DNA of 64,000 bases from Mytilus trossulus (lineage: Eukaryota). The stretch lies in assembly GCF_036588685.1 (NCBI RefSeq), contig NC_086376.1:22134001-22198000 (forward strand), written 5' to 3'. The position numbers and the translations under genes were made by a program. The notes beneath the pieces were generated by a model. The model saw only the letters and a list, made by a program, of their open reading frames with translations. It was not told the DNA's origin and ran no database searches. Within the stretch, counting starts at the first letter, position 1, and every line of letters begins with the position of its first letter. Shown in pieces: positions 28,773-60,344 of the stretch.

Positions 28773-28907
28773 ATCATTCGTGCCTCTGGTCCCTGGAATG
28801 TTCTGTTCTTTGTTATTGTTGTATTCTTTGGATCATTTTACCTGATAAACTTGATGTTAGCTGTCGTGGCTATGTCCTACCAAGAAGAGGCTGTCAGTGC
28901 AGGGAAG
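28773..28907 (+). CDS. Nav coding exon 8: DI S6 ([45 protein letters not shown])
   Basis: tttttcag / AAG|gtacga, 135 nt, phase 0 to 0. [16 protein letters not shown] motif. Confidence 0.96.
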
Positions 28908-30672: not shown

Positions 30673-30684
30673 GAAGAACTACAG
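30673..30684 (+). CDS. Candidate microexon, 12 nt (EELQ), DI-II linker
   Basis: catgctaatcattacttag|GAAGAACTACAG|gtagtc. Phase 0, purine-rich, CTAAT branch-like motif upstream. Donor only moderate. Confidence 0.55.
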
Positions 30685-33351: not shown

Positions 33352-33360
33352 AAGAAAAAG
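33352..33360 (+). CDS. Candidate microexon, 9 nt (KKK), DI-II linker
   Basis: ctctcttccaattattgctgcttttggcaatcag|AAGAAAAAG|gttagt. Phase 0, TGC motifs just upstream of the acceptor. Confidence 0.55.
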
Positions 33361-33363
33361 GTT

Positions 33364-34401
33364 AGTTGCTATGTAGATCAGTGAAGCATGTTGTACTGTT
33401 ATTCAGACAAGTTGTTATGTAGCATGTTGTACTGTTATTCAGACAAGTTGTTATGTAGATCAGTGTGGCATGTTGTACTGTTATTCAGACAAGTTGTTAT
33501 GTAGATCAGTGTAGCATGTTGTACTGTTATTCAGACAAGTTGTTATATAGATCAGTGTAGCATGTTGTACTGTTATTCAGACAAGTTGTTATGTAGATCA
33601 GTGTAGCATGTTGTACTGTTATTCAGACAAGTTGTTATGTAGATCAGTGTAGCATGTTGTACTGTTATTCAGACAAGTTGTTATGTAGATCAGTGTAGCA
33701 TGTTGTATTGTTATTCAGACAAGTTGTTATGTAGATCAGTGTGGCATGTTGTACTGTTATTCAGACAAGTTGTTATGTAGATCAGTGAAGCATGTTGTAT
33801 TGTTATTCAGACAAGTTGTTATGTAGATCAGTGTAGCATGTTGTACTGTTATTCAGACAAGTTGTTATGTAGATCAGTGAAGCATGTTGTACTGTTATTC
33901 AGACAAGTTGTTATGTAGATCAGTGTGGCATGTTGTACTGTTATTCAGACAAGTTGTTATGTAGATCAGTGTGGCATGTTGTACTATTATTCAGACAAGT
34001 TGTTATGTAGATCAGTGTGGCATGTTGTACTGTTATTCAGACAAGTTGTTATGTAGATCAGTGTAGCATGTTGTACTGTTATTCAGACAAGTTGTTATGT
34101 AAACCAGTGTAGCATGTTGTACTGTTATTCAGACAAGTTGTTATGTAGATCAGTGTAGCATGTTGTACTGTTATTCAGACAAGTTGTTGTGTAGATCAGT
34201 GTAGCATGTTGTACTGTTATTCAGACAAGTTGTTATGTAGATCAGTGTAGCATGTTGTACTGTTATTCAGACAAGTTGTCATGTAGATCAGTGTAGCATG
34301 TTGTACTGTTATTCAGACAAGTTGTTATGTAGATCAGTGTAGCATGTTGTACTGTTATTCAGACAAGTTGTTATGTAGACCAGTCATGTTGTACTGTTAT
34401 T
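33364..34401. repeat. 46-bp minisatellite, about 22 copies, each containing GCATG
   Basis: Unit tgttgtactgttattcagacaagttgttatgtagatcagtgtagca. Confidence 0.95.
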
Positions 34402-36095
34402 GTTTGTTCAATCAGTCTTTGCTTACAGAAAATCTTTCATTTTATTTATTTTTTTGATAATTTATTTTAGTTTTTTTAGCTCACCTGGCAAAAGAGCCAG
34501 TTTGAGTTATCGCCATCACAGGCATCACCTGTTGATGGCAACAATTTAACTTTTACGTTCACTCTTCATCTCCACTCTTCATCTCCGACTAAAAGTTTAT
34601 TTGAAACATTCCAGAAGGGATTTGTTCATTACTGTACAGTGTAAAACTTCTCAATTTGTAGTTTCTTAAAAATTTAATTAGATATGCCCATAGGATACTG
34701 TAGCTATCATTAAAATATTTGTAAAATTCATATGAAAGTTTATTTTTAAAGAGCGTTTTCTTTGATGAAATGTATTGGGAAATATTTGTTTGTGTATGAT
34801 TTGATCAGTTACTACTCACTAGAAAGTTTGAAAGTGAATGATCTATATATCAAAGTCTTTTTTGATATGACAGAGAAACATTTATGAGTTACAAAACCCT
34901 ATAACTTAATATACCTATACATGTATTTGATTGCCATAATTGATTATTTCTACATTTTTTAAGAATTTATGGGTGTGCATTCACTGTGCAAATATCTTTT
35001 AAAATTTTGTAAATTAGTAAAAATTTAATTTATATAAGAATTACTGTTTGTGCTATTCAGGTGAAATTAGATTTGATATAAAGTTCCAAAGTATATTAAA
35101 TAGTGAAGGATTTTATTTGTTATTTTTTCTTAAGTAATAAAATTCAATAATAATATCAGTCACCAAGCTTTACGGGAGGTATCAATGATTCTATATATAA
35201 TCTCAATCAAATAAAAATATCAAATTGGGAGATATTTTTTTGCTTTTCTTTAAATGTTCATTTGACTATGATGAATTGAGTATAGCAGCATGTCATGTAT
35301 GTTATATCTGGTTAAAACAAGACAATGTTGATTGCTTTAAACCCCACAAAGATCAATTGTTTCTCAAATTTTTTATTAAAGATGAAATATGACATTATAA
35401 AACAGATAGTCTTTCACAATGTTATGTATATCGTTGAAATTGGGAATTGAAATACATGTACATGTGGCCTTCGGCTGTTGTCTGCTCTATGGTCGGGTTG
35501 TTATTGCTTTGACACATTCCACATTTTCATTCTCACTTTTATGTTCATGTAAATATGAGATTATGTAACACACAAGTCTTATATGTGGTACAGAAAATTC
35601 CCCTTATTGATGTGGCCCTTCCTTTTCACATTGTACTTTTTCAGTTTATAAGAATACCTCATTCCACCCATTATACAGATTTAGTATATACATTGTATTG
35701 TTATGTGAAAGAATACAAAGTACTTACTAAATAAATGATAAATAGAAACGCTTACGTAGATCCAGACGATATATTCAAAGAGATTAGTAACTTATATTGA
35801 TTAGCAAACATTTTGAAATTAATAAATAATGAATATTTGCTTCATTACTGAAGATTGAAAGCCCTTAAAAAATAAAATCAATAAAAGAAATTCTTTCAAA
35901 AAATGGAATTATCACTTGCATTCCTTTATATATCCTTCTTTATAGATAATTTTATTATTTGATATGATCTATTACAGTTCATTTCCCACAGTTATGATGT
36001 TATGATAGAAATGCTTAGTGAAAATGGGGGGGGGGAGGGGGGGAGGGTAAACTAACTCTAAATAGAACACAAGGAACAGAAAAATTGAAGTCATA

Positions 36096-36598
36096 TTTTT
36101 ATGCCCCACCTACGATAGTAGAGAGGCATTATGTTTTCTGGTCTGTGCGTCCATTTGTCTGTCTGTCTGTCTGTTCGTTCGTCTGTTTGTCTGTTCCTTC
36201 GTCCGTCCGTTCGTCCGTCTGTCCCACATCAGGTTTAAGTTTTTGGTCAAGGTAGTTTTTGATGAAGTTGTAGTCCAATCAACTTGAAACTTAGTACACA
36301 TGTTCATTATGATATGATCTTTCTAATTTTAAAGCCAAATTAAACTTTTGACCCCAATTTCACGGTCCACTGAACATAGAAAATGAAAGTGCATGTTTCA
36401 GGTTAAAGTTTTTGGTCAAGGTAGTTTTTGATGAAGTTGAAGTCCAATCAACTTCAAACTTTGTACACATGTTCCCTATGATATTATCTTTCTAATGTTA
36501 ATGCCTAATTATATTTTTTATCCAATTTCATGGTCCATTGAACATGGAAAATGATAGTGCAAGTGGGGCATCCGTGTACTTTGGACACATTCTTGTTT
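36096..36598. mobile_element. HINE-like element (ATGCCCCAC...GTGGGGCAT) with (GTCY)n microsatellite
   Basis: Subterminal inverted repeats, tetranucleotide microsatellite, two internal repeats of about 180 bp, and 3' hairpin. A 5'-truncated copy lies at about 59379-59658. Confidence 0.75.
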
Positions 36599-36768
36599 TG
36601 TTTGCTTTATTTCAAAATTGGTAAAAGAAAAGATTCAATAAGAAGTTTTAGTTTGTGCACACACTGACTGATCAGTTGCATGTTACATATATGAAGCCTC
36701 AACTTCTTACACTTTGAGTTTACATATAAAGTGTAAATTGATCAAATATTTTGTTTTCTAACCTATAG

Positions 36769-36783
36769 GAAGAACAAGCATTG
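36769..36783 (+). CDS. Candidate microexon, 15 nt (EEQAL), DI-II linker
   Basis: ttttgttttctaacctatag|GAAGAACAAGCATTG|gtaagt. Consensus donor, phase 0. Confidence 0.75.
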
Positions 36784-37078
36784 GTAAGTCTACTGCAGAC
36801 AGCTTATATGTTGGGTTACCGGCTAAACAAGCAAACGCTTTATTGTTGGTTTATCATTATAATTGTGTTCCTTATCATCATCAAATCATTTGGCATGGTT
36901 AATTTCATTTACAATTGCAGTGCCTTTTATTTACAAGAATTGATCATTCAATTTAAAATAGTGTTTTTAGCTTTTTAATAATTATGCTGTCTTTATGATG
37001 TTTATCAAAATACAGATTTGATGGTTTCAGCAAAGTTTTGTTATTGTTATTATTAAAGCTGGAACTGTTTCACATTTA

Positions 37079-38388
37079 TTTTTAGCTCACCTGGCCCGAA
37101 GGGCCAAGTGAGCTTTTCTCATCACTTGGCGTCCGTCGTCTGTCGTCCTCCGTCGTCGTCGTCCGTCGTCGTCCTGCGTCCGGCGTTAACTTTTACAAAA
37201 ATCTTCTCCTCTGAAACTACTGGGCCAAATTTAACCAAACTTGGCCACAATCATCATTGAGGTATCTAGTTTGAAAATTGTGTCCGGTGACCTTGCCAAC
37301 CAACCAAGATGGCTGCCATGGCTAAAAATAGAACATAGGGGTAAAATGCAGTTTTTGGCTTATAACTCAAAAACCAAAGCATTTAGAGCAAATCTGACAT
37401 GGGGTAAAATTGTTTATCAGGTTAAGATCTATCTGCCTTGAAATTTTCAGATGAATCTGACATTCCCTTGTTAGGTTGCTGCCCCTGAATCAGTAATTTT
37501 AAGGAAATTTTGCTGTTTTTGGTTATTATCTTGAATATTATTATAGATAGAGAAAAACTGTAAACAGCAATAATGTTCAGCAAAGTAAGATCTACAAATA
37601 AGTTAACATGACCAAAATGGTCAGTTGACCACTGTAGGAGTTATTGCCCTTTATAGTCAATTTTTAACCATTTTACGTAAATCTTAGTTATCTTTTAGAA
37701 AAATCTTCTCCTCTGAAACTACTGGGCCAAATTAATTGAAACTTGGCCACAATCATCTTTGCGGTATCTAGTATAAAAATTGTGTCCGGTAACTTGGCCA
37801 ACCAACCAAGATGGCGGCCATGGCTAAAAATAGAACATGGGAGTAAAATGCAGTTTTTGGCTTATAACCCAAAAAACAAAGCATTAAGAGCAAATCTGAC
37901 AGAGTTGAAATTGTTGATCAGGTCAAGATCTATCTGCCCAGGAATTTTCAGATGAATTGGATCATCGGTTGTTAGGTTGCTGCCCCTAAATTGGTAATTT
38001 TGAGGAAATTTTGCTGTTTTTTTGTTATTATCTTGAATATTATTATAGATAGAGATAAACTGTAAACAGCAATAATGTACAGTAAAGTAAGAACTAAAAA
38101 TGAGTCTACATGACCAAAATAGTCAATTGACCCCCTGAGGAGTTATTGCCCTTCATAGTCATTTTTTAACAATTTTCACAAAATTTGTAGATTTTCACTA
38201 ACATTTTCCACAGAAACTACTGTTATAGATAGAGATAATTGTAAGCAGCAAAAATGTTTAGTAAAGTAAGATCTTCAAACACATCACCATCACCAAAACA
38301 CAATTTTGTCATGAATTCATTTGTGTACAATGTTTAATATTAACATAGACCAAGGTGAGCGACACAGGCTCTTTAGAGCCTCTAGTTT
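37079..38388. mobile_element. Non-autonomous Helentron/HINE-like element, copy 2 (same family as 27154-28417)
   Basis: Same termini, longer (GTC)n microsatellite, perfect hairpin AGGCTCTTTAGAGCCT. A truncated relative lies at about 34471-34525. Confidence 0.82.
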
Positions 38389-39247
38389 ATATTCACTATT
38401 TTTTTGCACATATAAAAAAGATTTTATTTTACAAATTGAAGCCCGAATTTTGCCCTTGTGACAAGCACATTCTGGTATTAGTTTATGATCATTACTGTTT
38501 TAATATCAAATGTTCTGACAAAAGTCTTTCTGTCCAAAACATTACAGAAAATGTTACTGAAAAAGAAACATGTTGTTCACAATAATTCCTCTCACTGTAT
38601 CTAATATTACAATTTTGTCCTGTAAAAATGGTCGATCTAAAACATTTTTGTAGAATATTTGCCCCACAACATCAACATTGATTCAGTTCCAAAAGCTAGT
38701 TCGGTGTTATTTGACTATTTTTATGTTCTGTTGATTTAATAACATGTTGATGTGAAGAGTTTAAAAAATAACTAAAATTGTTGAAAGACTATAGAATTTT
38801 ATTTACATGTTGCTGTGCATATATGTGCAAGTTAACATTGAGGCATAATGTAATAAATAACCTGTGTATATAAAGTACAATGGAGATATATGCCTAAAAT
38901 TTTTGAAAGTCATAATTTCAATAATCTATTGTAACTAGGATGGAGAGTTGTCTCATTAGCACTCATACTACATCTTCTCTATATGTATGATATACAAATG
39001 TATAAAAATATTAACCAAAAAAAATCTTTTATTTTACAAGTAATATAAAATCAAAATGCTTCATCTTAAAAACAATTATATTTTTGATAAAATGAAATAA
39101 AAACTAAAGAAAAAAAACATTGTGTCTTTCTCAAAGGTAAAAGGTAAATGTTCCTTAATTCATTGGTGGTAAAATAAGGAAATATTATATACAGATAAAG
39201 TTTTCAATGAATTTATATATTTGTAAATTTTATTTTTGTGAATGCAG

Positions 39248-39271
39248 CAAAAGCATGAGGATGAGAAAAAG
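39248..39271 (+). CDS. Candidate microexon, 24 nt (QKHEDEKK), DI-II linker
   Basis: ttttatttttgtgaatgcag|CAAAAGCATGAGGATGAGAAAAAG|gtatta. Phase 0, charged peptide matching the composition of the next exon. Confidence 0.65.
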
Positions 39272-40993
39272 GTATTATGAATTAACAGCTATATATGAAT
39301 GAAATTTTAAAAAAGCTATATTATGTTGTCTCCTTGGTGATGGCCCCAATTGCAGCATAAGTTCTGGAATACCCTTTCCTCAAAAAAAAAAAGAAGGAAT
39401 ATAGCTATTCTTTAACAGTATATTTTTGTATGATAATATGACTGTTATAGTATTTATTTTCCTATCTTGAGGGGCTTTCCATAACCAGCTTGAGAATTAA
39501 CCTAACCCGTTTTTAATGAAAATAACTTGGCATGAAAATTATCTCCCCTTTTCTGTGACCATAATTTATAAGAATTTTTTTACCCAAATATTATATTGAA
39601 ATTGCCTTTCTCTACATTTAGTATTCAGATATTTTGCATGTATTCTTTAGACCTAGAGTGTATTATTTTACAGCAGCTTTTATGATTTAATAATACTGTA
39701 ATATTGTGTGATTATACAATTATTTTATGCTATAATCGAGTGTGATGATTATTTTGATGGTTGGATATATTGGTCAATTGTTAGTATGTGAAACTAAAAA
39801 CTCTTTTCCAAGATTCATTGGGACAGAAATAACCCATTGATAATATTTTTAGGCTAATTAAGTAATTATTGTTTTGTATGTTGATTATATCTGGTGTAAT
39901 TACAGGAATAAAAAGATGCTATATATGTGAATGGAATTGCATTACCAAGAAGGAAATTAAATAATTATGTATCTGTGTTCCCGTGTTGTGAAAAACATAA
40001 TTGTTAATCAATTTTGAGCGAAATGTCTTAATTAACTGTCGTCTCCAACCATTTAAATATCAAAATTAAACTTCATATAGATTTTAAACATTAATGAGTC
40101 GAGGAAATTAATGTTGCTTTTTTTTTCATATTGATTCTCAGTTTGATGGTATAAATGTTACAGAATCCACGTATAAAAGTTCACATGAGACGGGATTATT
40201 ATAGACCAGATATTGTTACATATGTTGTTTCAAATATTTAATACCAATGAATGAATCTTTTGCATAACATAATTCTTTCTATTGAATAAATGGATTACAA
40301 ACTATGTAATTTATAAAAACAGAATATCTATCCATGGTCACTTTCATGTCCTCGTAATGTGTCAGATTAACAAAGTTTTCTTTTTAGGTGTAATCCCTTG
40401 AAATAATATTTGTTTGAAACGATTATTGAGTAAATGTATTGTTTGATTCATGATCACTAAACGTTATAAATAACATCAATCGTTACAATTTTTCTTCTAT
40501 TTGCTTCTCAACTTAGGGTTTGTCATTTAATCTTTAATTTAAGAGAAAGAAAATTCTTAAAGATCATGATCAACTTTTGTATGAAAACATTTTTTGATTT
40601 TTTTTCATCTATATTTAACTGTTTAATTGTTTAACTTGACTTTTAAGTTACCATTTAGAACCAGTTTGGGTTATAGTTTTAATAAAATCAATAACCCTTT
40701 ATTATACAATCCTGGAAGTTATGAAAACTTTTACAGAAGCTATATTTCATACATGATTGAGATTCAAAAGTTTGATATTGTTCATTTCTGTTGTCCTGAG
40801 TCCTCATTTTACCACACAAACCTTCATTGCATTTGCCAAATTTAGATATAACAAGAGACAACACCCTGAGCAAAACTTAAATTTTTCTAGTAATCATAGT
40901 TTTTTGCAGTCAACATAACACTTATAAACTAATAGAAGCAGTCCTAGATGAGACATGGGGGATTTTTATAATACTGTTTATTATTTATTATAG

Positions 40994-41428
40994 GAAAAAG
41001 CAGATAATGAAAAGAAACAGAAAGAAAGAGAAAAACAAAAGCTAAAGGAATTAACAAGTGCTACAAAAGCTGCTCAAAAATGGAATCCAGGACATCGAAA
41101 AAACAAAACAGGGATACTAGATAAAACCCAAAAAGATTCTGGTTCTAAAAATGACAAAAATGACAAAAAGTCTGATACAACCAATGGTGAACCTCTTATC
41201 AAATATGGGAAAGGTAGAAATCCAATGGTTAAAATGCCCAGTAAAGACAGTGGTTATTCTGTGGGAAGTAAAGGTAGCTCTCAATCTAATGGAAAAGATA
41301 CACCTAGAGATGAAGGGGACAATGATAGCTGGGATAGCGACTCTAATCCTCGGAAAGCAGACTCTGGAACAGGATCTCTTAGCCAAGAACCAGTCTATGA
41401 AAAGAAGACTAAATTAAAAGAATTAAAT
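40994..41428 (+). CDS. Nav coding exon 9: DI-II cytoplasmic linker (EKADNEKKQKEREKQK...SKDSGYSVGS...KLKELN)
   Basis: ttattatag / AAT|gtaagc, 435 nt open, phase 0 to 0, same frame as ORF 41225-41476. Confidence 0.9.
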
Positions 41429-42598
41429 GTAAGCTATACTAAAATTCAGATGTTTTATTTAACACAAAGATTGTAACCTAACAGCATGCCAAAAAATAAA
41501 GTCTTATAATGGGCAAGTGCACATACTGTGGATTCATTATTATTTGTTGGCTGCCAATTTTCGTCAATTTTCATGGTAACCCTGGAAGGACAAATTTTGA
41601 TTTCAACGAATCACAAATTTTCTTTAAGAATGTATGCAGATTTTGGCAGAACCACAACATCAAATATCCAGGAAAATGTATGATTTCCAAAATTCATGAA
41701 AATTGGTTCCCACAAAAACAAATGAATCTACAGTATATATATACTTAAATACATTCAAATAGAAATAATTTGATATACTGGTAAATATGTTAGCTTCTAT
41801 TCAGAATAGAATCTTTGATCAAGATTTTTCATAATCTGTTGTCTCAGAGGTGTCCTGTAATTGGGTCAGAGGTCACCGTACTTGGTACTGTATGTGCCTA
41901 ATTATTCAACCATCATGTGACCATGTAAGTATTTAGGGTATTTAAACATGGCATCCTGAATTTTACAAGAATATTGGTATAAAATCAAATATTTTGCATT
42001 TTAGCCCATTTTTATATAAATTGCAGTCTCTTTATACCCAAATATTTCTTTAAAAATTAAGACACGAAATTGTTCATTTGATTTTATCTCATGATCCCTC
42101 AAATTGGTAATACATAAATGGCGGAAATATGGCAATAATCTGGAAATGTTTAACAAGATATCTTGGGTTATCCATTGATTTTTATGTGTGACTTGTTATT
42201 GTTACCAGCAAATTAAAGTCTAATTAGGGATTTTTATTACTATACAATAAAACACGAAGGATTTATTTAATAATATGATCCTTGTATTAAATAATTCCAA
42301 CATAGTTACTGATCCAAAACAGATTAAGTTTGGATTGAATAAGAGCTAATTTGTTTTCGATAAAATCTGTAGTTGTCACATTTTGATAAATTTGGACGAT
42401 AGACGAACATTTTGTCATGCATTTAATGCAATAAAAACAGCATAATTAAATTTTGTATCAGGCCATTTATGTAACTTAAATCTACATTTTACCAAATGTT
42501 TATTCGTTGTTAGAGAATGATTATCCTGCTGTGGAGTAGACCCACAAAATCATATGACTATATAAGGAACAAGAAGGTCAAGTCTGGATGTCTGTTAA

Positions 42599-42857
42599 CC
42601 CTTTCCTCCATGGATTTTTTTTTTAACATACTTGATTCGCATAGGATTTTTTCAATAAAAAAATCATCAGATTTAAAGTATTAATGTATTGCGAAAACAA
42701 ATATTTCATCAATGTAAATTCTTGTCAGATATTCTCATGAACATCCTTATTATATTCAACACAATTGTTTTTAAGTCGGATATAGATTTTTGTAGGCAAT
42801 ACATTTCAACAGAGGCACTACACAGGCGTCAAAAGGCGTCATTATGGAGGAAAGGGG
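42599..42857. mobile_element. piggyBac-like MITE, second copy
   Basis: Same TIRs and similar body as 25501-25798, with TTAA on the left. Confidence 0.78.
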
Positions 42858-43331
42858 TTTATGAGATATTAGAAAATAGTTGTGTGTTAAATCTTATTTT
42901 AAGATAATATGGCCAAATAAAAGCATCCATTGTTTTATCTTAAAATGAACAGACTTCTCAGTTTTTACCTATTTTTTTTATACGCAAATAATCTAGTGCT
43001 ATATAAAAAGAACCTTACTATAATAAAAAATACAGCTAATCACTTTTCATGTTGGGTAAACATCTAAGAGACAGCAACCTACTGACAAAATTACCAAAAG
43101 ATGTTTGGAGTATGAAAATTTACATTTAAAATATAACAATAGATTGTCCCAAGTTTATAAGAAATGTGAATTAATTAACCAACAACCAAAGACCTACCAT
43201 TAAAACCAAGTTCTGAAAATACTAAAATACATTATGACATACATGTACTGGCTATGTCAACTGTATAAGAAATGTGCTGTTGTAAGTGATATCATGAAAT
43301 GCATTAAACATTTTTACTTTATACTACACAG

Positions 43332-43346
43332 GGTGGAATGACACAT
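43332..43346 (+). CDS. Candidate microexon, 15 nt (GGMTH)
   Basis: tttttactttatactacacag|GGTGGAATGACACAT|gtaagt. Phase 0. Confidence 0.62.
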
Positions 43347-44706
43347 GTAAGTTACTGAAATAGTGTGTAAATGTTACATTTCTTGCTGAAATGTCATGTA
43401 TGTTACAACTGTTCATGTAGCTAAGCACTCTGTAAATGTACATATAACTGTGGATTCATTTATTTTCATGGGGACAACTTTTGGTGGATTAGTGAAATCT
43501 TACATGTTCTTGAATATATTTAATTTCTTGGTTTTACCTGATTTTGCATTCAAGTCGATAGAAAGTTCAATTTTTGTTGCACATGTATATTAATTGAATC
43601 CACAGCATAGCACAACCCTGTATGTTACATCTGAAGCTGAGCACCCTGTAACTGTACATTTTATAGCACATCCCTTATCTATGTTTGACATCTGTCTTAT
43701 TTACTCTAACCAGGTTGTATAATTGTCCTATTCTCAAAGACTATTATTGCTGTAAGGCTGTAACTATTGTAATGATTAAGTTATTGAGAAATTCATTTGG
43801 GCTGCTGTTCCTTGAGTAGTTCCAATGATATATGTTATCTGCATTGGTTAGGAAAATGGAATGGAGACTACCGTATTTGAAACCACCCACTCATGCAGTC
43901 AGGCAATGAGGATCAGTTGACTTTAAACTTTCTATTTCAACATTTGCATTATTCTATTGAAGTAGTTCACAGGAGAGGCATAATTATCTTTGTTTGAACA
44001 TTTTATTTATAAACAAGGTTTATTGGTACATTAGGTATTAACGAGTAATCCCTGAATGTTGACCTTGAGAGGTCTTTCTGTTTCGTTTCATCGTTGAATT
44101 GCATGTCTCCCTTGCACTACTTTTCCTCTTTTTTTTAGACTCGGATTGGATTTGAGTCTTTATTGTCCAAAGCTTTAGTTTCAGGTGTTTTCTGTTCATA
44201 TAAATTTTGTAACCTGTCTTATATTTTTTATGATCTCTACGGTTTCTTCAATATCAAATTGTGGATTTACTTATTATCTCCCTTTAAAAAATATTTTGTT
44301 TGTTAAATTCTAACCTTAAATGAGGGTAACATTTGAATGTTTTGCAGATGTAGTAACTACTTTGAATGTGTTTACTACATGTTTTAAAATCCTAAGATTT
44401 CAACTACTATTCAGTTCTGTCAACATTGTATGAATATGTTTTCACCTCCCTCTTGCCCTTATAATAGTTCGTTATCACCACTTGTGTATTAAATGTGAAT
44501 TACAAGTACCAAGTGATCTTACAAGCTGTCATAGATAAATATTGACCATCAAAGTAAATTTAAACTGTTACTTGTTAGAAGGTACTTATATACTTCATGT
44601 TTGACTATTTACTTATAAACAGACGGGCAAAATTTTTTAATTATCTACATGTCTATAGTGAAAAGGTAGAAATTTAAAGATAATATATGAATATTACTTT
44701 TTTCAG

Positions 44707-44718
44707 ATAAAATATACT
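44707..44718 (+). CDS. Weaker candidate microexon, 12 nt (IKYT)
   Basis: Poly-T tract and cag, then ATAAAATATACT|gtaaga. In frame, but the exon composition is AT-rich and intron-like. Confidence 0.35.
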
Positions 44719-45327
44719 GTAAGAAGGATTTCATTTTTAAAATAATATGTGGTATCTTTCATGGTTGAAATGTTTTACAATAATCTATTTTCCTCCTTTT
44801 AGGGTGTTTTGTATCTTTTTAAAGTATGGGCATTGGACAATTTAATAATGTACTAATAATTTGTCTAAAAGACATACGAATAGCTTCAGACAATAAAAGC
44901 ACTGACAGAATTTAAAACTGTATTCATACTTTCTTTGTTTCCAGGAATATGACTAGTATATATAGATTTGGCTTAGTCTTGGTCAATAACTTAAATTCTT
45001 ATATTTACAAATGTTTCTTTGATCTGACACATTCCCATGAAAATAATTGATTAATTCCAGAATCCAATTACCATACTACTTTCAAAATTAAACTACCAGA
45101 ATAAAATTGAAAAAAAGTTAACCAAACCATAGAAAATTATTTTTGTGTAGTAGTTCATTGAATTTCTTTCCTAAACTTTACTAGAACTTAATCAGTAAAT
45201 ATTTCTGAATTATTTGGTTTAGAAAAAGGACAAATGGCGTAGGTCAGCCAAGCTTTTTTGGAAAGCATATACTAGTTTACAGCATTCAAAAACTGTCATC
45301 AACTCGTTGAATATCAATCTTTTTCAG

Positions 45328-45354
45328 GCACGATCATTTCTGGATCAAAGTATA
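45328..45354 (+). CDS. Candidate microexon, 27 nt (ARSFLDQSI)
   Basis: atcttttt cag|GCACGATCATTTCTGGATCAAAGTATA|gtaagc. Phase 0, no stop, contains CpG. Confidence 0.55.
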
Positions 45355-45789
45355 GTAAGCTTGATGTGTAATTTGTTTGAACAAGGTCTTTCAAAATAGT
45401 TGTTAATGTATTGTTTCACTAAATTTATCATGTGGGGATAACATGTGCACTTCAGGTACCTATAGGTGTTCTAATTAGCATAGTTGAATCAACATAGAAA
45501 CTTCCTTAAATTGCCTTTAATTTTTTCCTAGATTTTGCATTACCACTATAAGTGGAGGCAAACATATATTTTACTATAGTGATTTAATGACGTGCTATTT
45601 TTTATTTATAGAAAAAGTTGGAACTCTGACATTTTGTCCTTGCATAATTTATTTGTACCACAATATGTAGAAATTTAATAACACTGTGAATAATAATACA
45701 TGCTCCTACTGAAACATAATCAGACACTTAATCGAGATTAAATATTGCGTAAGTTGTTTGTTCTTCATAAATTTTATACCTATTTATAG

Positions 45790-45804
45790 CGCCGAATCAC
45801 TGTT
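45790..45804 (+). CDS. Candidate microexon, 15 nt (RRITV; PKA consensus)
   Basis: ttttatacctatttatag|CGCCGAATCACTGTT|gtgagt. Phase 0, two CpG-containing Arg codons in CpG-poor intron sequence. Confidence 0.65.
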
Positions 45805-46929
45805 GTGAGTATTTTTATGGTAGATCTGCAGTATCACCAGAATTAACATTTTTATCTGTCGAGGGTTAAATCAAATGATATGTACTAATCCCCATTGCAC
45901 TGTTGTTTACCAGAAAAGAATGTTCACACTGTTCTTATAACAAAGGAAACCTGTAAGTTTGAATCCTAAGAATTTGAATCTAGAATTAACCTCAAAATGT
46001 ACAACAGTTGACAGCATAAAACTATATAAGTTAAAGTTATTTTTGTCTTCTGATTTAGAGTAATATTATAACTTATAGTCTTTTTTATATTGATATTTTT
46101 AAAGGAGTCTTTTTTATATTGATATTTTTAAAGGAGCAATGGAACAGGGTATGATGAACAGTCATTACTCAGTTCTTAAATCTTCAAAGTTTATAAAAAT
46201 TCTTCAAATCTTTCAAAATATGTTAGTTAAATTCATAAATAAAAAAGGATGCTATACTCTGGACAGTACAGTTGTGATGTGATGTCACTTACTGATATCA
46301 TAAACTTGTTAAAGTTGATTTTCTCCTCCTAACATTGCCATTGTGCACAGTTATAAAATTAATTTTGAGACAAGGCTTTACCCAAAAAGATATTGTACCT
46401 ACATAGACAGTTAAGGATAAAAAATACTTATCTTTTGGGGTAAAGCCTAAGGAACTGCAAGATCTTAGAAATAGGACTCTTATTGGGGGCTTTTTTCAGT
46501 TGTGATTGGATGGGAGTTAGTTTGAGTCAAAAACGACAGTTTGTCAGACAAAATTTAAAAAAAACTATAAATACTGATATCAGAAAAACCAGTGTATTGT
46601 GACTTCTGAATGATGCTAATTCATAGATTTATTTATTACTTTTTTGTTTTTCTTCATCAAGGTATCAAAAAATCTTATCCTATCTATAAGTACTTTCGGT
46701 TACAAAACACTCACTAATGAAGGACCTGATACACTTATTTGCATTGATTCTTTAGGCTAAAATTATATGATTTGCTTGTTTCCTGTTTTTTTCTATCCTC
46801 TGTATCTGTATAAATGTACAAACTTCTCAGCTAAACCAGAGCTCCAATGTCCATATTATCAACATTAATATGTATTATAATTGTTTGGAAATTGAAAAAA
46901 AAGTTTTATTTCTTAAATCTTTTGCAGTA

Positions 46930-47137
46930 CTGTGGTTTCATTTATATTCGTGGGTACCAATTTTCGTGGATTAAAGAAATCTTACATGTTCGTGGATACT
47001 TGATTTCGTGGTTTTACCGTAGTCTCCATACAAGCCTATAGAAAATTTGTCATTCGTTGAACATTTAATTTCGTGGTTTACCCTGACCCACGAAATCCAC
47101 GAAAATTGGTATCCAACGAATATTAATGAATCCACAG
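46930..47137. mobile_element. TA-flanked MITE (CTGTGGwTTCA...TGAATCCACAG), Tc1/mariner-like
   Basis: TIRs with TA duplication. Diverged relatives at about 41526-41733, 43449-43605 and 55712-55879. Confidence 0.75.
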
Positions 47138-47159
47138 TATATGATGTTCTTTTTTACAG

Positions 47160-47244
47160 GTGTCTTCCTCAGATGTCCAAATTGCAAAAAGTACGGGAAG
47201 ATTCAGTAGTTTGTCAAGGGAAGAAACTGTTGTCATTATCAAAC
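47160..47244 (+). CDS. Nav coding exon 10: DI-II linker (VSSSDVQIAKSTGRFSSLSREETVVIIK)
   Basis: ttttttacag / C|gtaagt, 85 nt. Supplies the phase 0 to 1 change needed to join exon 9 to exon 11. Confidence 0.87.
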
Positions 47245-50200
47245 GTAAGTTATAAACATATCAACGTTTTCACCTTTGTTGTATGACATTAGAATGTGTT
47301 ACAATCATAGACAAAACTTATTTTCAACTTAATATAATTTAGGCTGATTAGACACTTTTTAATAGAATAACTATTTACACACCAAATTGAATTACAATAG
47401 TATTTATGGAATTATGAACTTCGAGCTTTAAAATGTACCTTAGGGTATTATCAATTTTTATACAAACTCTTGTGTAGTGTCATATGGATTAAGAATTGTT
47501 TTGCATAAAATGAATACTAGTAAATGTATATCATGATCTGGTTAACCGGTAGTTTGGTTTTATGAGACATAAACCTTTTGCCTATGACATGCAATAAAAC
47601 TATTTAAATGAAACAGCAATATAATGTCTTTAACAAATGGCTTCCCAGCTTTGCTTCAGATTTTCTATATATAGGCGCTTTTGAAACTCAATCCTACGAT
47701 CTTAAGGCCCTACCAGTCAAAACAGTTATTCTTCCAAGGATATTTTTAAATAAATATTGATTGTAATAATGCATTTTAAATTTTAAATTCTAATTGTCAC
47801 AAATAACTTAATTATCTAGGATTTCAACAGGTTTAATAAATAATGTTTGTCTAATATATCTAATGAAACTCAATTCAATAGACATTTCTTGTTTAAAATA
47901 CTGTACTGACGTAAATGTGACGTCAGTCGTTGATTAAAAGATATTCTCGTTTCTATTTCAGAACCTGTAATTAATTCATTATTGCTGATAAATATCAACA
48001 GTTATAAACTGATTGTATTTTGGATTTATAACAATGAAAATTGATTTCATTTGAATAACGTTTTTAGGATTATTATTTTATAAGTATTAATGTAGTGTTT
48101 GTTACCCCTTAGAGGTTGTTTAGGTCAGAAAAACATGTCCTTTTTTTAATTATATAATCCAAAGAGATATATTTATAGGTTCCATCAACTCTCTAGATTA
48201 AAAAATATATATAAATGTATTTCAAAAAGGAATATGTGTAAGCAATAAAAAAAAAAAACAGATGAAAGTGAGGCCCACTTGAATAGACCAATCTTAAGGT
48301 TTTTTTGTTTTCTTTTAGAATGAGTACACAGGTGACCCCTGCTCAATTAGTTACTATTAAGTCATTGATTGAACTTTTTTTTTCTTTTGTGACTTCATAA
48401 CATTTTTGCATAGGAAATGTAAAAGAAAATACATCAATTTTAAAGTTGTCTATAATATGCTTACTTTTAGCAATGTAGTGCAATATTTTTAAACTCAGTT
48501 GATAATTGGAATATGGAACATATGTCCATAGTGTAGTTGATACCAAAACAGACCTTTCAAATTAGTTAAGATCAGGAGCAATTGAGTATAAGATTTAGTA
48601 TAAGATTTACCCTAATATTGATTTAAAAAAAAATACTCAAACAGGCCTACAATTGCTTTTAAAAATACATCCACTTCATTTGAACTCAGATGGATAGTTA
48701 TCTCATTGGCAATCATACCACATCTCCTTATCTTTATATCAGTACTTATTTGGTAATAGATTATTCCATTAATACCTTCCAATGAACTAATTATTCCCTG
48801 TGTGCTACATAAGACATATAGTTATTATAAAAATCAAGTTAACCCAGGCCCCAGATCATCAATGCCTCTAATCAGTACTTCACACATGAATAATTAATTC
48901 TTCCATTTCTAATCTTGTAATTAGCAGAAAAACCTGAAGTTTGCAGAAAGAATAAATTGGTTTTATTTACAAATTGTTATTGGTAATTCACAATGTGTAG
49001 AACATAAATATTCTTAGAAATTTTAATTGGGGGAGAAAGGGGAGGGGTGAACAATTGTATTGATTGTTAAATGAGATATCTAAGGATGACAGCCTTAATC
49101 TTGAGTAAATTTAATGGTTCCAAAAGTTTCAATTGTTCCAAGTTTAAAAGAAGGTAAAAAAAAGTCAAGTATAACAAATACCTAGTATCTTAAATACGCT
49201 CAAATGAAAATTAAATTTCAAAAGTTTTTGAAAACATTTAATATCCATGAAAAGTTGATCCACGATCCCAAAAATTGAAATTTACCCTATACTTAAGATA
49301 ATTAAAAGAAATAGAAGGGAAATTGGTGTGTGTTTCATGGTACAACAGATATTGTTTGTCATTATTTAATTTGAAGATTTGAAATGCAAGCAATTCCATT
49401 TAAAAATTATTATTCGGTGGACAAAAACAAACAAGTTGAGTCTTATATGTTCTGTATCATTGATATTAACCTCTGAATAAGCAAAACAAATCGTATCAGA
49501 AAACAATGATTGATTTTGAGACTTAGTAAAGAACTGCACGAAATCTACCAGAAGTTAATGCATTTTTCTGATTCAATTTATAATGATAATTACTTAAATA
49601 CTTAATATCGCCTTCTAAAATTGTAAAAATGAATACAACTATATGCGTCACTAAGAATAAACTTTTCTGAAATATGAAAAGAATTGCAAGTCAATGAAAT
49701 TAGTCCATACCACATTTATGTTGTTATATGTACTGGATTAGCCTTACATAAATTGATTTATAATATTATCATTGTTATAAATTCCTTAGAATAAATCAGA
49801 CCAATATTTCTATTGAATATGTACTGTTATAAACTAAGTATGCATAATGACATATAACAAAATAAAAAGAGTTAAGTTTGAAATTGACGTTTCTATAAAA
49901 GGTTATTTCTCAACATGAAAAATGTACATTTCATATAAGTAAATATTTTCACCTGGCTGAGGAGTTTATGAATAGAGCGTCTAAGCTGATGCACACCTCT
50001 TAGCTGGGACACAATAAACCTGGCTTGTAAAACCTTTGTAGCGCTGACAATGACCGTCTATAGAAATCTCTAATTTATTGATTCATCTTAACGCTTAAAT
50101 TCATTTTACTTAAAGTGTAATATGAGAGTTAAATCTATATGTATTGAAACCTTGTCATTTCTTCAAGGTTAGCTGAAAATTTTATTGAGTGGACGCCAAA

Positions 50201-51887
50201 CTGTTGCATTATTAAAGTTTCATAATAGTACATCTAAAATGGAAACAAAACCACTGCATTTACTTTTATTATTTAATACAGGTGAAATTTTAGAACTAGA
50301 ACTTTAAGCTGGGCTTAAAATTTAAGTGTATTATTTCATCAAAATACTTTGATAGAGTTTAACCAGGCAGAAAATTAGATTTTAATTAATAATACATGTA
50401 GTTCAAAGAATTGACATTTAAATAAAAGTGCAAACATTGTATGCAGAATCAATTTTATTTTTAAATTTACCATAAAGAAAGTGGCTTTTCTAATTTATTT
50501 AACTGTTACTTATTTGCATTCTTACTTGAAAGTCCTGTCTTGTCTCATAAATTAATTTGCTTCAAAGGGTGTTTTGCGTTTTACAAATATACATCATTTC
50601 ACTTCTTTTAAGGTCACCTTCTGAAACATAATAACATATTACAAGTATTTAAAGGCATCCTTTTAGCCTTCTTTTGTCATATTTGTGAAATCATTGGCCA
50701 GAATCTTTAAATCTTTTGGCATTGGTTTGTGACAACTGACCAGTCTTTGTCTACATAAACTTGTAAATTAAAGACCAAGTTGACTGTCCCTTTGACTGCA
50801 TGTCATGCATACCTAGAACAAAAAATTGTGGGAAGTACATGTATTATTAATTATCCATCGACCTATGATGTTTATACCAATCATATATCTTGCTTCCATG
50901 TAGATATATATGTATGTATAAAACAGATAATGACATTGAATGCCTGAAAGCTAAGCATTTATACCTCCTATGGGAAAAGTGACATGCATTGTAAAATTTG
51001 AATATACCAATGTAATTAAGGACATTTGGCTGTAAAAGTTTGTTTTATTATTTTGTTTTCCATTAACTAACAATAAGTAACAATTGAACACACTGTTAGT
51101 GTTCAAGTCTAATAATAAGTACAGCATAATTACCGGAATTACTTCACAGAAAATCAACTTTATATTAGGTAGATGTCATTTTGGATTTTAGAGCTATTGA
51201 TTTGAAAGTAGATTTTAATATAAAATGTTTTGATATGCAGATGAAATCAATGCTAATTGTTTGAATTGAACATCATGTTATGTTACACTAATTAAAACAT
51301 ATAAGATTTTCTTCATTTAAACCTTGTAGAAGGTCATTGTTCTCTCTGTTCACGGTCAGGGATTCCTCCCCCAATAAAAACTATAGCCACCCTGAAAAGT
51401 GGCATTCAACGTCAATTAATAGAAATAACATTCCCTGTGCATTTTGTATACAATGCCTGTCTTGTGAGTCAGCAATTCTAAAATTTTGGCTCAGTGCGCA
51501 GAATAGGGTTCTGAATTAATGTACTGAAATGGAGTCATAATATACCATATTGAAGAAGAGGGGCGAAAGATACCAGGGGGGGCATTCAAACTCATAGATC
51601 AAAAATTAATCGACAATGCGATAGCTATAAGGAAAAAGACAAACAGACAATAAAATGTCAAATAATAGTAGACAAGACACAACATAGAAAACTAAGGACT
51701 AAGCAACATGAGCCCCACTAAAAACTGGGGGTGAACGAAGTAATCTCTGAAATGGGACAAGGTTTCCAAAATGAATTAAATTTAGATATATTAGTTTCTT
51801 CATTTCAGACTAGCCTGAATTAAAGCAGTAAATGTACAATGGTTCTTTTTTTGTAACTTTTATTATATACTAATTATTATTTTTCAG

Positions 51888-52135
51888 CTGATGAAGAAGG
51901 CAATGTTGCTGTTAGAGAAAAAGGTGAACTGGTGGACAGAAATTGTGCATGTTGTTCCAAAACAAAAATGTTTGTGTGTTGGCTCAAGTTCCAGAACATT
52001 CTCAACATCTTTGTCAGTGACCCACTTTTTGACCTGTTTGTCACAATATGTATTGTTTTGAATACACTGTTTATGATGCTTGAACATCATGGACAACCAC
52101 AATCACTTACAACAACTTTAGAGGTGTCTAACTAT
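51888..52135 (+). CDS. Nav coding exon 11: end of linker, DII S1 (PDEEGN...DRNCACC...DPLFDLFVTICIVLNTLFMMLEHH...SNY)
   Basis: ttttcag / TAT|gtgagt, 248 nt, phase 1 to 0. Confidence 0.96.
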
Positions 52136-52860
52136 GTGAGTGTTGACAGTTTTATATCTTAGAAAAATTCTCAAAATGAAACAAAAGTCACCTATCTAAA
52201 ACTAAACATTTAAAGCCATGATATCAGAAAGTAAACACTTATAAATTCAACACTTCAATGCGAAACATTAAGGCAAATAAAATTGAGAATGGTAACGGGG
52301 GATGTTGTCAAAGAGACAACATCCTGACCAAAGAGCAAAACACAACCAAAGGTCACTTACAAATGTACCATATCAAGGAGTTGAAATTTTATGAATGGAA
52401 AAAATTTAGGGGTGAGCCCTACTGGAGCTCCTCAATACTTCGAAATTCTCCATTGACATGCATCAATGAAAGGGAAATTGAAAAAACTGCAATGGCAGAG
52501 ACAAACCACAAGCACTTGTCTCAGAAAAAAAAATTATTCCTGTATACCTTGATATAATTGTTATATTAAGGTATACATGGTATATAGGAATTTATTTTTT
52601 CTGAGCCAAGCATCAAAGAAATATCTGTATAGGTAATTATTATTCAACCAAGAAAAATGATAACAATGTGCATATCAAGTAACAGTTCTTAAATAGGTAT
52701 TTGATAGTAGCTGTGGATGCTCAGAAACATTTGGAGACCACACAAATATATATTTATGCAAAAATAATAAGAACAAATGGAGTAATTACATATCATAATC
52801 TCTCAAAACCAATAGAAGTTTAATATGTTGAAATGAATGTATATATGTTTTTTATTTCAG

Positions 52861-53031
52861 ATTTTTACCTCAGTTTTCATACTAGAAGCTGTCCTGAAGA
52901 TAATGTCATGGAGCAAGTTTTACTTTAAGTCTGGATGGAATCTTTTTGACTTTGTTATTGTTATAGCCAGTATTATAGATATCAGTCTATCAGATATTCC
53001 AAGTTTTTCTGTCTTTAGATCCTTCAGATTG
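52861..53031 (+). CDS. Nav coding exon 12: DII S2-S4 (IFTSVFILEAVLKI...GWNLFDFVIV...SVFRSFRL)
   Basis: tttcag / TTG|gtaggt, 171 nt, phase 0 to 0. Confidence 0.97.
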
Positions 53032-53701
53032 GTAGGTACTCAAGCAGGTTAAACATCAAAATTGTTACTGGCTATATTTTATTTAAATAAGTATATGTAG
53101 TATGATTGCCAATGAGACAACTAGCCACCAGAGTTCAATGGCATTCAGCAATGAGAAAAATTAAAGCATACCGTTAAGTCCGTTTGTGTTTTACACTGGT
53201 CAAAACATCTCTTTAGCTTATCTAGAATGTTTAGACAGGCTAATGTTTTTCAATTTACCAAACATGCTGAATTCATAGTACATACAAACACTATTTTCCA
53301 CACTTATGAAAAAATTATTCTTTTCTGTGTTTTTAAGATAATCCAAATACTTGACACTTATACAACAAACTATGGTTAATAAGCTGTAAATAGATATATT
53401 TGAGCTGGTCAAAAAGCTAGACCAGCCATTTATGACCCCGAAAACTCTTACTAAGTTACAAGTTTTTTTTTATGTTTAATGCAAGATCACTTTCTTTATA
53501 AATCTTATAAGTGGAGTTCAAATATAAAGTTGAAATCCAAAACTTCTAAAAAAAATTGGCTTCCTAATTTTTCCCGTTTCATTTGAGATTTGTAAAGCAG
53601 CTAATATCATTGCAGACCAATTGAGTAAATATTTATTTCAATCTTTTTTCCGAGTACACATCAGTTTTGAAATGTCATGTTTATATATTTGTCTGTTTCA
53701 G

Positions 53702-53892
53702 TTGAGAGTTTTGAAGCTGGCCCAGTCCTGGAAGACTATGAGACTACTGCTACAGATTATTTTGAATACATTAGGATCTCTTGGACCTTTGACTCTTATT
53801 CTGATTATTGTTATCTACATCTTTGCGGTTATCGGACTTCAATTATTTAGTAAAAGTTACACAACTGCTGTATTTGGAGATGACATGCCAAG
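53702..53892 (+). CDS. Nav coding exon 13: DII S4-S5 (LRVLKLAQSWKTM...IFAVIGLQLFSKSY...MPR)
   Basis: gtttcag / AG|gtgggt, 191 nt, phase 0 to 2. Confidence 0.97.
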
Positions 53893-54388
53893 GTGGGTTT
53901 TGGTACACGACCAAGAAAACATTTTAACTGATTCTTTACTGAGTTAACTTTGAAATGGAAGAATGGATAAAAAATTAATTTACATGAGACAATGTATAAT
54001 GTTGGAAAAAACATAAAACAAGTTGTTTATATTTCATTACTTTGTATTGAGGATCAGTCCATCTAAAACTGTTTCAGTATAATGCTATAATATGTCTAGG
54101 TAAAGTATATCAACTAAAGATTTCAGGTGACTGTTTTTGTGCTTTGGGTGCTTGTTGAACATTTTAAGTCATGGGGACCTCTAGAAGTCCTTTTTATAAA
54201 TTTGCCTTTAAATTGCTTGCTGTTTACATTATTTGTATTCATCTGTAAAAGTTTTCTGTGAAATGGCACAGTTTCATAGTTATAAAAAAACTAATACATA
54301 ATAGTACAAATGAAGTTATGAAAAGATTTTAACAAAATAAAATTATAAACATTTGATATAAAATGAAGATTTTGTTGTTTGATTTCAG

Positions 54389-54539
54389 ATGGCACTTCAA
54401 AGACTTTTTCCATTCTATGATGATGGTGTTTCGAGTTCTATGTGGGGAGTGGATAGAACCATTGTGGGACTGTATGAGAGCTGAAGGAGAACTCTGTATG
54501 GTGGTCTTCCTACCCACACTGGTGTTAGGAAACTTTATT
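54389..54539 (+). CDS. Nav coding exon 14: DII pore loop and S6 (WHFKDFFHSMMMVFRVLCGEWIEPLWDCM...VLGNFI)
   Basis: tttcag / ATT|gtaagt, 151 nt, phase 2 to 0. Filter Glu codon at 54447-54449. Confidence 0.97.
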
Positions 54540-56685
54540 GTAAGTACTTACAGGAACTTTTGAAAAACAGTGTATGAAATACTTGCATCAAACAAACAAC
54601 CTTCTCTGTATGTGGTCCTTGCATTTAAGATGGTCCAAGTTGTCAATAAGATTGTTACTTCGTTAGGCATTGGATTATTTGTTACAGCAAATATTACAGG
54701 CCTGTAGCAAGGAATTGGGTACAATCATACTCAACCTCAACAGTTATAATTAAAACAGAAAGTGGACTTTAACAGTGCTTATTTATTTTCAAAAAAGGGG
54801 GGGGGGGTAGATGGGGTTCATACAAACCCTTTAAACCCTCTGGCTTTGGGTGTGGAGATAGGAAACTTTACTGTTACCCTGTAATGTCTACCATATTACT
54901 GGTGTTACAAAGAGGAAGTATTTGTTGGAATATTAACATTCATTTGTTTTGTCACTTCGGGTATGAAAGTTGAGATTACATAGAACCTTTCTATAAATAT
55001 TTACAATTTACAAATATCTCAAAGCATATTAGAAAGAAGTTTGAACACTTTTACATACAATTAAACTGAAGTTTTACCAAGACTTCAATATTGAGGGTAC
55101 CTATGAACTTTATTGTCGGGTACATAAAGGATCTCATTCCTGTTGGAGCTAGTCCAAAACATTAAATGTTTCTTGATAATTAATTATATACATGTTCCAT
55201 TTAAATCTATTCAAATCTCATGTTGAGAACATGTTTTTTTTTTCTTTATGACAACCATATAAATAATGTTTAAACGACTAACAAAGAAAATTATTGAAAT
55301 GAGTTCTGTAGATACTTGATTAGATTACCTTGCAATTAAAATTAGATATTGGTGAATGGGTACAATTCATCTTCTATAACACTCTTAGGGTTCTCAAGCT
55401 TTAAAGTTTAATAGATATATATTAATAAAAATAAAATTTATAAAAATGTTGATATTTGATACTATGAATTACATTAGAAAAATTCACAACATTTAATGAT
55501 AACGTCCAATTTTGTGGGTTTCACCTTCGATCATCAAGGATAATTACCATGTGGTTGTTTGAAGACATATATAAATTCTTGTCTACTTTTTACTTCTTGG
55601 TTTCATGTACTTCAAGTGGAGATTATTGTCAAACTTGAAACACTCCACAAACTTCAATTGCAATAACATGGATCTATATATTAGAAAAGATTAGATGGAA
55701 ATAATCACTGACTGTGGATTCACTTATTTTCTAGGGATATCTATGTTCTTGTATTTCAGGGATCTATGTACACATTTTGTAATGAATTGTATGCTAACTT
55801 TGACAAAACCATGAAATCAGATATCCCAGAACATACTGTCATACATTATTTTCTCTATCCATAAAAGTGAAATCCACAGAAACAGAATTATCAAAGATAT
55901 CTGAACTTTTTTTTTTATATTTGATTATAAACTGTAAGAATGTGGCTGTATTTAAGTTGATTTGATATTTAATACCCATTGTTCACAAGGAGAGGGTACA
56001 CGATTATGTCTGTCTGTCGGTTCTGTACAAATTTGGTCTCATTTTTCTCAGGAAGTACAAATCAAAAATTTAATATCAAACTTAATGTGAGCTTGCTATA
56101 CCATAGGTAAACTTTCAGATCCATTATTCATCAACTTCCTATGAACAGAATAGTTGTATATTCTGACATGCAATAGATACTTATGAAATTTCTGTTTATT
56201 ATTTCGAATAAACTACAAATCAATTAAGGCTTTCTGAAATAAGAATCAAACTGAATGAGACCATGCTCAACCATCTGATGCATTTTCAAATCCATCACTT
56301 ATCAACTTCCTGTTTTCTGTATAACTTCTTGTTTGGGCATCATAAGAAAGCAGATGTCAGCAATTAAGCTTTATAGTCCAACTTGTTAACTCAAATTGAA
56401 GCACAAACATTTAAACCTTACACTAATGCTGACTTACATAATCATGATTGTATATATTCCAAAAGAAAATATTAAGATTGGCATCATGAAAAACAAAAAA
56501 ATAGTGATTGATAATTATAGCAACATATTATACCATAAGGTGACTCAATATTTACTACTGGAGAATATGAGAGGTATATACTTTTATAAATATTTATATC
56601 TGTTTGAAATATCAGATTACATGTCTTTACAAAATAGGGGATACATTGGTTTTTATGTCTAATTCTCAAGTGGGTTTAACCTGTT

Positions 56686-56911
56686 TGAAGTTGGGTTTTT
56701 TCCTATTGTCTTTTTACCTTTTGTTTTACTATGAAGTTGGTTGTTTTTCCTATTGTCTTTTTACCTTTTGTTTTACTATGAAGTTGGTTGTTTTTCCTAT
56801 TGCTTTTGACCTTTTGTTTTACTATGAAGTTGGTTGTTTTTCCTTTTGCTTTTGACCTTTTGTTTTACTATGAAGTTGTTTTTTTTCCTATTGCTTTTGA
56901 CCTTTTGTTTT
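56686..56911. repeat. ~48-bp T-rich tandem repeat, about 5 copies, just upstream of exon 15
   Basis: Variants of tgaagttggttgtttttcctattg.cttttgaccttttgttttacta. Confidence 0.88.
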
Positions 56912-56947
56912 ATTTACAATCACAATGAAAACATCTTATTATTTCAG

Positions 56948-57164
56948 GTACTGAATCTCTTTCTTGCCTTGTTAATTAATGCTTTTGCTAGTGATAATTT
57001 AAAAGCCAATAGTGATAAAGAAGAAGACAACAAAATGTTGGCTGCTGTTAGAAGAATCAAAGAGCTTTGTTGTTGCTGTTTAAGTAAGAAAGTAGCACCT
57101 AATGAGGCGGCGATTGAAGAAGGTATGGAACTCTCTTCTGATATTGAGAGTATTAATAGCAATG
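56948..57164 (+). CDS. Nav coding exon 15: DII S6 end and II-III linker (VLNLFLALLINAF...CCCCLSKKVAP...SINSN)
   Basis: tttcag / G|gtaagc, 217 nt, phase 0 to 1. Confidence 0.94.
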
Positions 57165-59977: not shown

Positions 59978-60093
59978 ACAAAAATGGCAATCCAAAAGAA
60001 GTTGGAACGGATAAGAAAAATCCTGAGAAATTAAAACTACCGCCAATATCACAGTCTAATGGAGCTGTTCAAAATAAAGACAATAATAATAAG
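59978..60093 (+). CDS. Nav coding exon 16: II-III linker (DKNGNPKEVGTDKKNPEKLKLPPISQSNGAVQNKDNNNK)
   Basis: tatttag / AAG|gtatgt, 116 nt. The phase 1 to 0 change bridges exons 15 and 17. Confidence 0.87.
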
Positions 60094-60344
60094 GTATGTA
60101 TTATAACCTCTTTCTGACACACACACATATGTAAAGATTGCTGTATGGTAATCAAGGTCTCTCAAATACACATGTATATATTGATGTACACCAATCATGA
60201 AACCTCTAATACATTATTTATAATGTGTATATTGATGAACATACCACAATCCTCAAGACAAAACAGTCATATTAACATTTCTATAGAAACTCATTTGATA
60301 AAAATCAACATATAAAGATTTACTAGGAGAGTTACATGATAGCA

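Follow-up and report, generated by a model that had tools for sequence, protein, structure and literature searches.

A 15-nt optional microexon in a channel gene of Mytilus trossulus encodes the pentapeptide RRITV. When included, it lengthens the I-II linker of a Nav2/DSC1-type channel by five residues, at a place where the linker is predicted to be disordered, and likely creates a single site, T654, that an arginine-directed kinase, e.g., PKA or CaMKII, could phosphorylate. The exon is almost certainly real and optional; the proof is external and comes from public protein models, and the exon is already present in public RefSeq models. The reading that we prefer, tentatively and with a probability a little short of even, is that the exon supplies an optional site for a basophilic kinase, restricted to one lineage, through which some Nav2 isoforms are fine-tuned; phosphorylation of T654 would adjust these isoforms rather than switch cAMP control on and off.

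The window, i.e., the whole stretch of 64,000 nt analysed here, holds on its forward (+) strand the 5' part of the host gene (8950..61960), which extends from the N-terminus to the II-III linker of a voltage-gated cation channel and is recognized by exon matches and by the selectivity filter. The exons match residues 1-1146 of the M. trossulus model XP_063432639.1 (P0018), split codons aside. The filter reads D-E-E-A, in which domains III and IV are read from the matching model, outside the window; the D-E-K-A filter of Nav1 is absent, domain III having E. Because of this filter and of the nearest insect matches, which bear the names 60E/DSC1, the host is assigned from its sequence to the Nav2/DSC1 (CaV4) channels and not to Nav1, although RefSeq calls it “sodium channel protein 1 brain-like”. 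The preliminary description had invoked the PKA sites in the I-II linker of vertebrate Nav1 as a precedent. This does not carry over directly to the mussel channel: PMC6259924 describes extra I-II-linker exons in Nav1 that bear conserved phosphorylation sites, and Nav2 lacks these exons, so the likeness to vertebrate Nav1 is one of analogy and not of homology. We also note that the Mytilus Nav2 models P0004, P0010 and P0052 differ from P0005 and P0018 in the C-terminal module, from domain IV S3 to the end (beyond the window), which suggests a duplicated, alternatively used 3' block.

The microexon is situated at 45790..45804 (+) in phase 0 and reads CGCCGAATCACTGTT, with a 5' flank ...tttatag and a 3' flank gtgagt (tag/CGCCGAATCACTGTT/gtgagt). 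It corresponds to residues 651-655 of P0018, with T654 as candidate acceptor, and its length and its AG and GT borders place it among microexons (3-27 nt, AG/GT ends). The surrounding phase-0 intron separates a 435-nt exon (40994..41428, +) from an 85-nt exon (47160..47244, +). The 15-mer fits phase 0 because the upstream exon ends on a full codon, and inclusion gives the reading ...KELN-RRITV-VSSSD.... As described earlier, the exon is rich in CpG within a CpG-poor intron, with 2 CpG in 15 nt as against 47 in 5732 nt (observed/expected 0.37). This richness was rejected as a separate line of evidence, since it follows from the two Arg codons. Both of these are CGN, a choice made in 7 of the 33 Arg codons of the large exons, and two CGN codons would be the sole way to open an exon with RR without an AG dinucleotide.

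The splice signals are weak, with scores of 3.0 for the acceptor and 3.3 for the donor as against 9.4-18.2 and 6.3-11.8, respectively, for the large exons. They are no proof of the exon by themselves, because it ranks only 52nd of 1126 stop-free AG..GT candidates of 6-33 nt under a small matrix trained on the large exons of the same gene. The pattern RRxS/T occurs among the 1126 solely at this acceptor (three rows, each starting from 45790). A GTRAG end is found in 5 of the 131 candidates of 15 nt, and three of the five (EEQAL, GGMTH and RRITV) are present in public protein models.

RRITV is carried by 17 of the 29 Mytilus protein models that span the junction, from three species, and is lacking from the other 12; the 29 are those cluster members that were listed, which for the largest cluster means 15 of its 41. 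By species, it is found in 3 of 3 models of M. trossulus, 8 of 12 of M. edulis, 6 of 10 of M. galloprovincialis, 0 of 3 of M. californianus and 0 of 1 of M. coruscus. Within M. galloprovincialis, the carriers are 6 of 7 RefSeq models versus none of three from another pipeline. Exons as short as this enter RefSeq models on the strength of RNA-seq junctions. The carrier models come from three assemblies; those of M. edulis and M. galloprovincialis are separate from that of the window, and the M. trossulus model may share its assembly with it.

Inclusion rests on these gene models and skipping on spliced contigs. Of 18 listed sequencing runs, presumed to be RNA and carrying no tissue label, four were aligned to the window, and three of the four hold the GT..AG joint 47244-51888. 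The skipped form is seen in spliced contigs of three of the four: the two flanking exons are adjacent in record 24 of run X9, exactly 85 nt lie between exon 41428 and exon 51888 in record 9 of run X3, and a joint in run X7 jumps 5731 nt. Run X1 yielded unspliced pieces only. Runs X1, X7 and X9 have no cover over 45455-45911, and record 14 of run X3 (45657-45810) contains the exon together with upstream intron in unspliced form. No inclusion joint for RRITV is present among the 15 of 187 joints listed, where bridges are counted from 31 letters on each side, so that a 15-nt exon can escape; this absence is not counted against inclusion, and the gaps in cover and the unspliced pieces are likewise given no weight. 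The lack of a listed inclusion joint is what an annotation error, never spliced in, would also give. Such an artefact is nevertheless very improbable in view of that bridging rule, of the modelling of RRITV in three species with one model carrying it alone, and of a model with the neighbouring microexon GGMTH alone that comes from a different pipeline. The models and contigs thus bear out two claims of the preliminary description, namely a 15-nt in-frame, phase-0 microexon with tag/gtgagt borders and its optional use in the I-II linker.

The spliced contigs found all skip RRITV, which together with the weak splice scores and the narrow species range would suit a recently arisen splice form, used at a low level and tolerated in a disordered loop, free of any selected function. 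We regard such noise as quite doubtful: the exon is modelled in the annotations of three species, optional inserts occupy the same junction across bivalves and gastropods, and weak splice sites are also reported for regulated fly eMIC exons (PMC8797185).

Three microexons share the intron: GGMTH, ARSFLDQSI and RRITV. The optional 15-nt microexon GGMTH (43332..43346, +; ag/GGTGGAATGACACAT/gtaagt) is located upstream of RRITV and accompanies it in 16 of the 17 RRITV models; RRITV stands by itself in one (M. edulis X5), and GGMTH by itself in VDI64608, with a GGLTH version in M. californianus. The idea of a stand-alone “plug-in” exon has therefore to be given up. Between the two lies the candidate 27-nt microexon ARSFLDQSI (45328..45354, +; ag/.../gtaagc), which has good splice sites and ranks 4th of the 1126 candidates. 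Its counterpart PRSFLDQSI occurs in two of the three M. californianus models listed, which contain GGLTH with or without it; ARSFLDQSI itself is absent from all 25 edulis-complex models listed. Possibly RRITV and ARSFLDQSI exclude each other, or the use of ARSFLDQSI varies with the species.

Several other features of this region were observed. The candidates IKYT (44707-44718) and EQWNR (46134-46148) take ranks 1 and 2 of the 1126 in the same intron, are in no listed model, and are probably decoys. A dispersed short repeat at 41520-41570, 43447-43516 and 46929-47143, in direct and inverted copies, flanks the microexon cluster; the arms 41520-41570 and 47093-47143 are 86% complementary, and their pairing could favour skipping of the whole cluster. 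Besides the RRITV intron, the gene has four optional small exons, of which three lie where the linker begins and the fourth in the N-terminus. VWRFGPRSYPL (33 nt; 29287..29319, +) and EEQAL (15-nt microexon; 36769..36783, +), both at the linker start, never occur together in the 29 models listed; EEQAL is found in M. edulis X6 and M. galloprovincialis X6, and as EEQEL in M. californianus. The gene models contain the optional 24-nt microexon QKHEDEKK (39248..39271, +), the optional segment SLVSPYSM (10678-10701), and an optional 14-residue extension of the II-III linker, GMELSSDIESINSN (57122-57163). A tandem array at 33418-34401 (period 46, 21.5 copies, 96% matches) occupies the intron between two optional exons, and directly upstream of the exon at 28773, its acceptor and first codons are nearly repeated in a short stretch (28700-28772), which forms a tandem decoy acceptor.

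As for the encoded peptide, RRITV agrees with the PKA consensus R-R-x-S/T-hydrophobic, as the preliminary description had stated, with Thr as the acceptor, and it is also the only RRxS/T in the I-II linker. The motif RRx[ST] followed by a hydrophobic residue is expected by chance at about 3e-5 per position, given the cytoplasmic composition of the skipped isoform, or about 0.002 over the 51 optional residues, with the caveat that the motif was chosen post hoc. In an AlphaFold model of P0018 residues 437-766, the site falls in a segment (model residues 149-241) with pLDDT below 50 and no secondary structure; pLDDT is about 35 at RRITV itself, in a model of low confidence (mean 49.4) built from 25 sequences. 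The exon is thus predicted to sit in a disordered stretch of the linker. Phosphorylation of T654, the kinase responsible, and any effect on current or trafficking are inferred.

When GGMTH is skipped, as in M. edulis X5, the context becomes L-N-R-R-I-T-V with Leu at -5, a feature of CaMKII/PKD-type sites. A reading as an ER-retention signal was dropped, because that motif is RxR and RRITV has no R-x-R. PKA strongly prefers Ser, yet Thr substrates are not necessarily poor (PMC7361990), and both CaMKII and PKA phosphorylate basophilic sites in the I-II loop of Nav1.5 (PMC3948048).

The preliminary description went further and proposed a dedicated PKA switch, in which only isoforms with the exon answer cAMP. 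The exact consensus and its uniqueness in the linker agree with such a switch, as does the precedent of fly para, where sodium current is correlated with inclusion of an optional 22-residue exon that bears a PKA site (PMC3245913). Modulation by cAMP is not necessarily splice-dependent, however, because isoforms that lack the exon still have a constitutive C-tail site, RRLSS, which reads RRLTN where the alternative C-terminus is used; RRLS is shared by 4 of the 12 non-Mytilus species displayed (Potamilus, Haliotis, Gigantopelta and Pomacea). The host is moreover a Nav2 and not a Nav1, the acceptor is Thr, conservation of the site stops, in the models examined, at the edulis complex, and the literature listed contains no report of a Nav2/DSC1/CaV4 channel controlled by PKA. 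The strict switch is consequently improbable.

Conservation of the RRxT codons in other bivalves had been put forward as a check, and it fails beyond the edulis complex. None of 28 non-Mytilus molluscs (one model per species; for nine species a 400-residue window stood in for the exact linker boundary) has RRxS/T in the I-II linker, and at the junction it is absent from the three listed M. californianus models, which have PRSFLDQSI or nothing there. Identity of RRITV among the three carrier species says little, because linker identity of 96-98% between these species would by itself be expected to leave five residues unchanged in 83-91% of cases. The junction itself is used more widely. In seven other molluscs an insert at this position is likewise present in some forms and absent from others; the inserts are unrelated in sequence and none has RRxS/T: GYLSVKRHYK and RYVSVKRPYK in scallops, QPNAVKNSTPRYIMV in Magallana, FQNKSLTQRSM in Mercenaria, RQPTNRSM in Ruditapes, GFLK in Haliotis rufescens and LPEGRA in Pomacea. 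In oyster-, scallop- and ark-clam-like sequences, read-through ORFs become divergent immediately beyond ...N-VS, consistent with an intron at the same position. Searches of shorter proteins (10 matches) and of 50% representatives (11) returned, for the most part, single-exon read-throughs, and among these matches no additional mytilid crosses the junction. Among metagenome contigs no relative of the upstream exon was found; three loci that match the degenerate microexon pattern (51-66% GC, no polypyrimidine tracts) are taken as chance. On present data, comparison of these sequences indicates that the position of the junction is old and that the RRxT sequence is confined to the edulis complex. 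The junction is a splice hotspot kept across bivalves and gastropods, at which the inserts turn over completely.

This turnover is where a regulated spacer or charge insert has to be weighed, in which a short, mostly basic peptide between the upstream exon and the conserved VSSS alters spacing or binding and the PKA match is incidental. Such a sequence-tolerant role accords with the unrelated inserts of the seven molluscs and with the three alternatives that Mytilus holds in one intron. The proposal of a basophilic site created by every molluscan insert was not supported, since a new K/R-x-x-S/T arises with 7 of 10 inserts against 4.9 expected for random linker pieces (P=0.15), and there is thus no evidence of a shared kinase function at the junction; this non-significant test also suits the spacer. 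An exon that is exactly R-R-x-T-hydrophobic is nevertheless rare by composition, and its two CGN codons fit a need for RR without AG. We consider the spacer unlikely on balance, though a serious competitor. The readings therefore rank, in order of decreasing probability, as basophilic-kinase site, sequence-tolerant spacer, strict PKA switch, tolerated noise, and artefact.

In the otherwise variable linker, two conserved motifs are present at 41225-41370 of the upstream exon, MVKMPSKDSGYS, conserved across bivalves and abalones, and DSGTGS, which is found in mussels, scallops, oysters and ark clams and has the form DSGxxS, resembling a beta-TrCP phosphodegron. The upstream exon ends in KLKELN and does not contain Φ-x-K-Q-x-S; the downstream exon starts with VSSS, in which alignment A1 shows conservation of at least 90% for the three serines. 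Φ-x-K-Q-x-S occurs at the end of the upstream exon in 23 of the 28 non-Mytilus molluscs versus none of the five Mytilus, and the close relative P0238 reads LVKQEL there, with the acceptor lost. This motif is a putative phosphosite, judged from conservation alone. Since it is constitutive in other molluscs and lost in Mytilus, RRITV may re-supply, optionally, a basophilic site of this kind. A bolder and rather improbable extension is that mussels lost an ancestral constitutive kinase site, Φ-x-K-Q-x-S, and rebuilt it as a splice-optional RRxT, with the neighbouring exons acting as a combinatorial kinase selector: a CaMKII/PKD-type site would result when GGMTH is skipped and a PKA-type site when it is included, and ARSFLDQSI would replace the site. 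If true, this would be the first Nav2/CaV4 channel in which phosphoregulation is coded by splicing.

Little is understood of Nav2/CaV4 channels, and the literature searched yielded neither kinase control of them nor an optional kinase-site microexon in Nav2/DSC1/BSC1/CaV4 channels. A five-residue optional site offers a clean paired comparison of isoforms with and without RRITV. No paper on the RRITV exon was found in that literature, most subscription journals lying outside its scope, and the word “microexons” does not appear in the 15 of 190 Mytilus papers listed. The surprise is limited, as an optional PKA exon has been published for fly and oyster Nav1 and RRITV is already in RefSeq models.

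One of the known systems closest to the mussel exon is an optional exon of Drosophila para, named exon a. Like RRITV, the para exon is an optional PKA-site exon in the I-II loop of a four-domain channel, and its inclusion correlates with current in single neurons (PMC3245913); it differs in encoding 22 residues rather than five, in belonging to a Nav1 rather than a Nav2, and in not being homologous to RRITV. The oyster channel CgNav1 of Crassostrea gigas is likewise a bivalve channel with optional I-II-linker exons (exons 5 and 7); for exon 7, which is biased towards ganglia, 12 PKA sites are predicted, and control by PKA conditional on splicing has been proposed (PMC5295241). CgNav1 is a Nav1 (DEKA), in contrast, its exon 7 comprises 135 residues, and splicing of CgNav2 lay outside that study. 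An optional PKA exon in the I-II linker is thus already known from fly para and oyster Nav1. The mussel channel has in common with Nav2/DSC1/BSC1/CaV4 channels the D-E-E-A filter, known here from sequence. The honeybee DSC1-type orthologue is calcium-selective and TTX-insensitive, has splice variants and was proposed as CaV4 (PMC4969797), and predicted PKA/PKC sites and splicing have been described for an insect DSC1 orthologue (PMC3805903). Ion channels are over-represented among the hosts of fly eMIC microexons, whose splice sites are weak and whose acceptors have a UGC nearby (PMC8797185). RRITV, a possible member of the SRRM4/eMIC neural class, resembles such microexons in its 15-nt length, preserved frame, weak splice sites and ion-channel host. 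The class is marked by a UGC close to the acceptor, a long AG-free zone and a strong branch point; at RRITV the nearest TGC is at -44, the 34-nt AG-free zone is ordinary and within the range of the large exons, and one TTAAT is present at -62.
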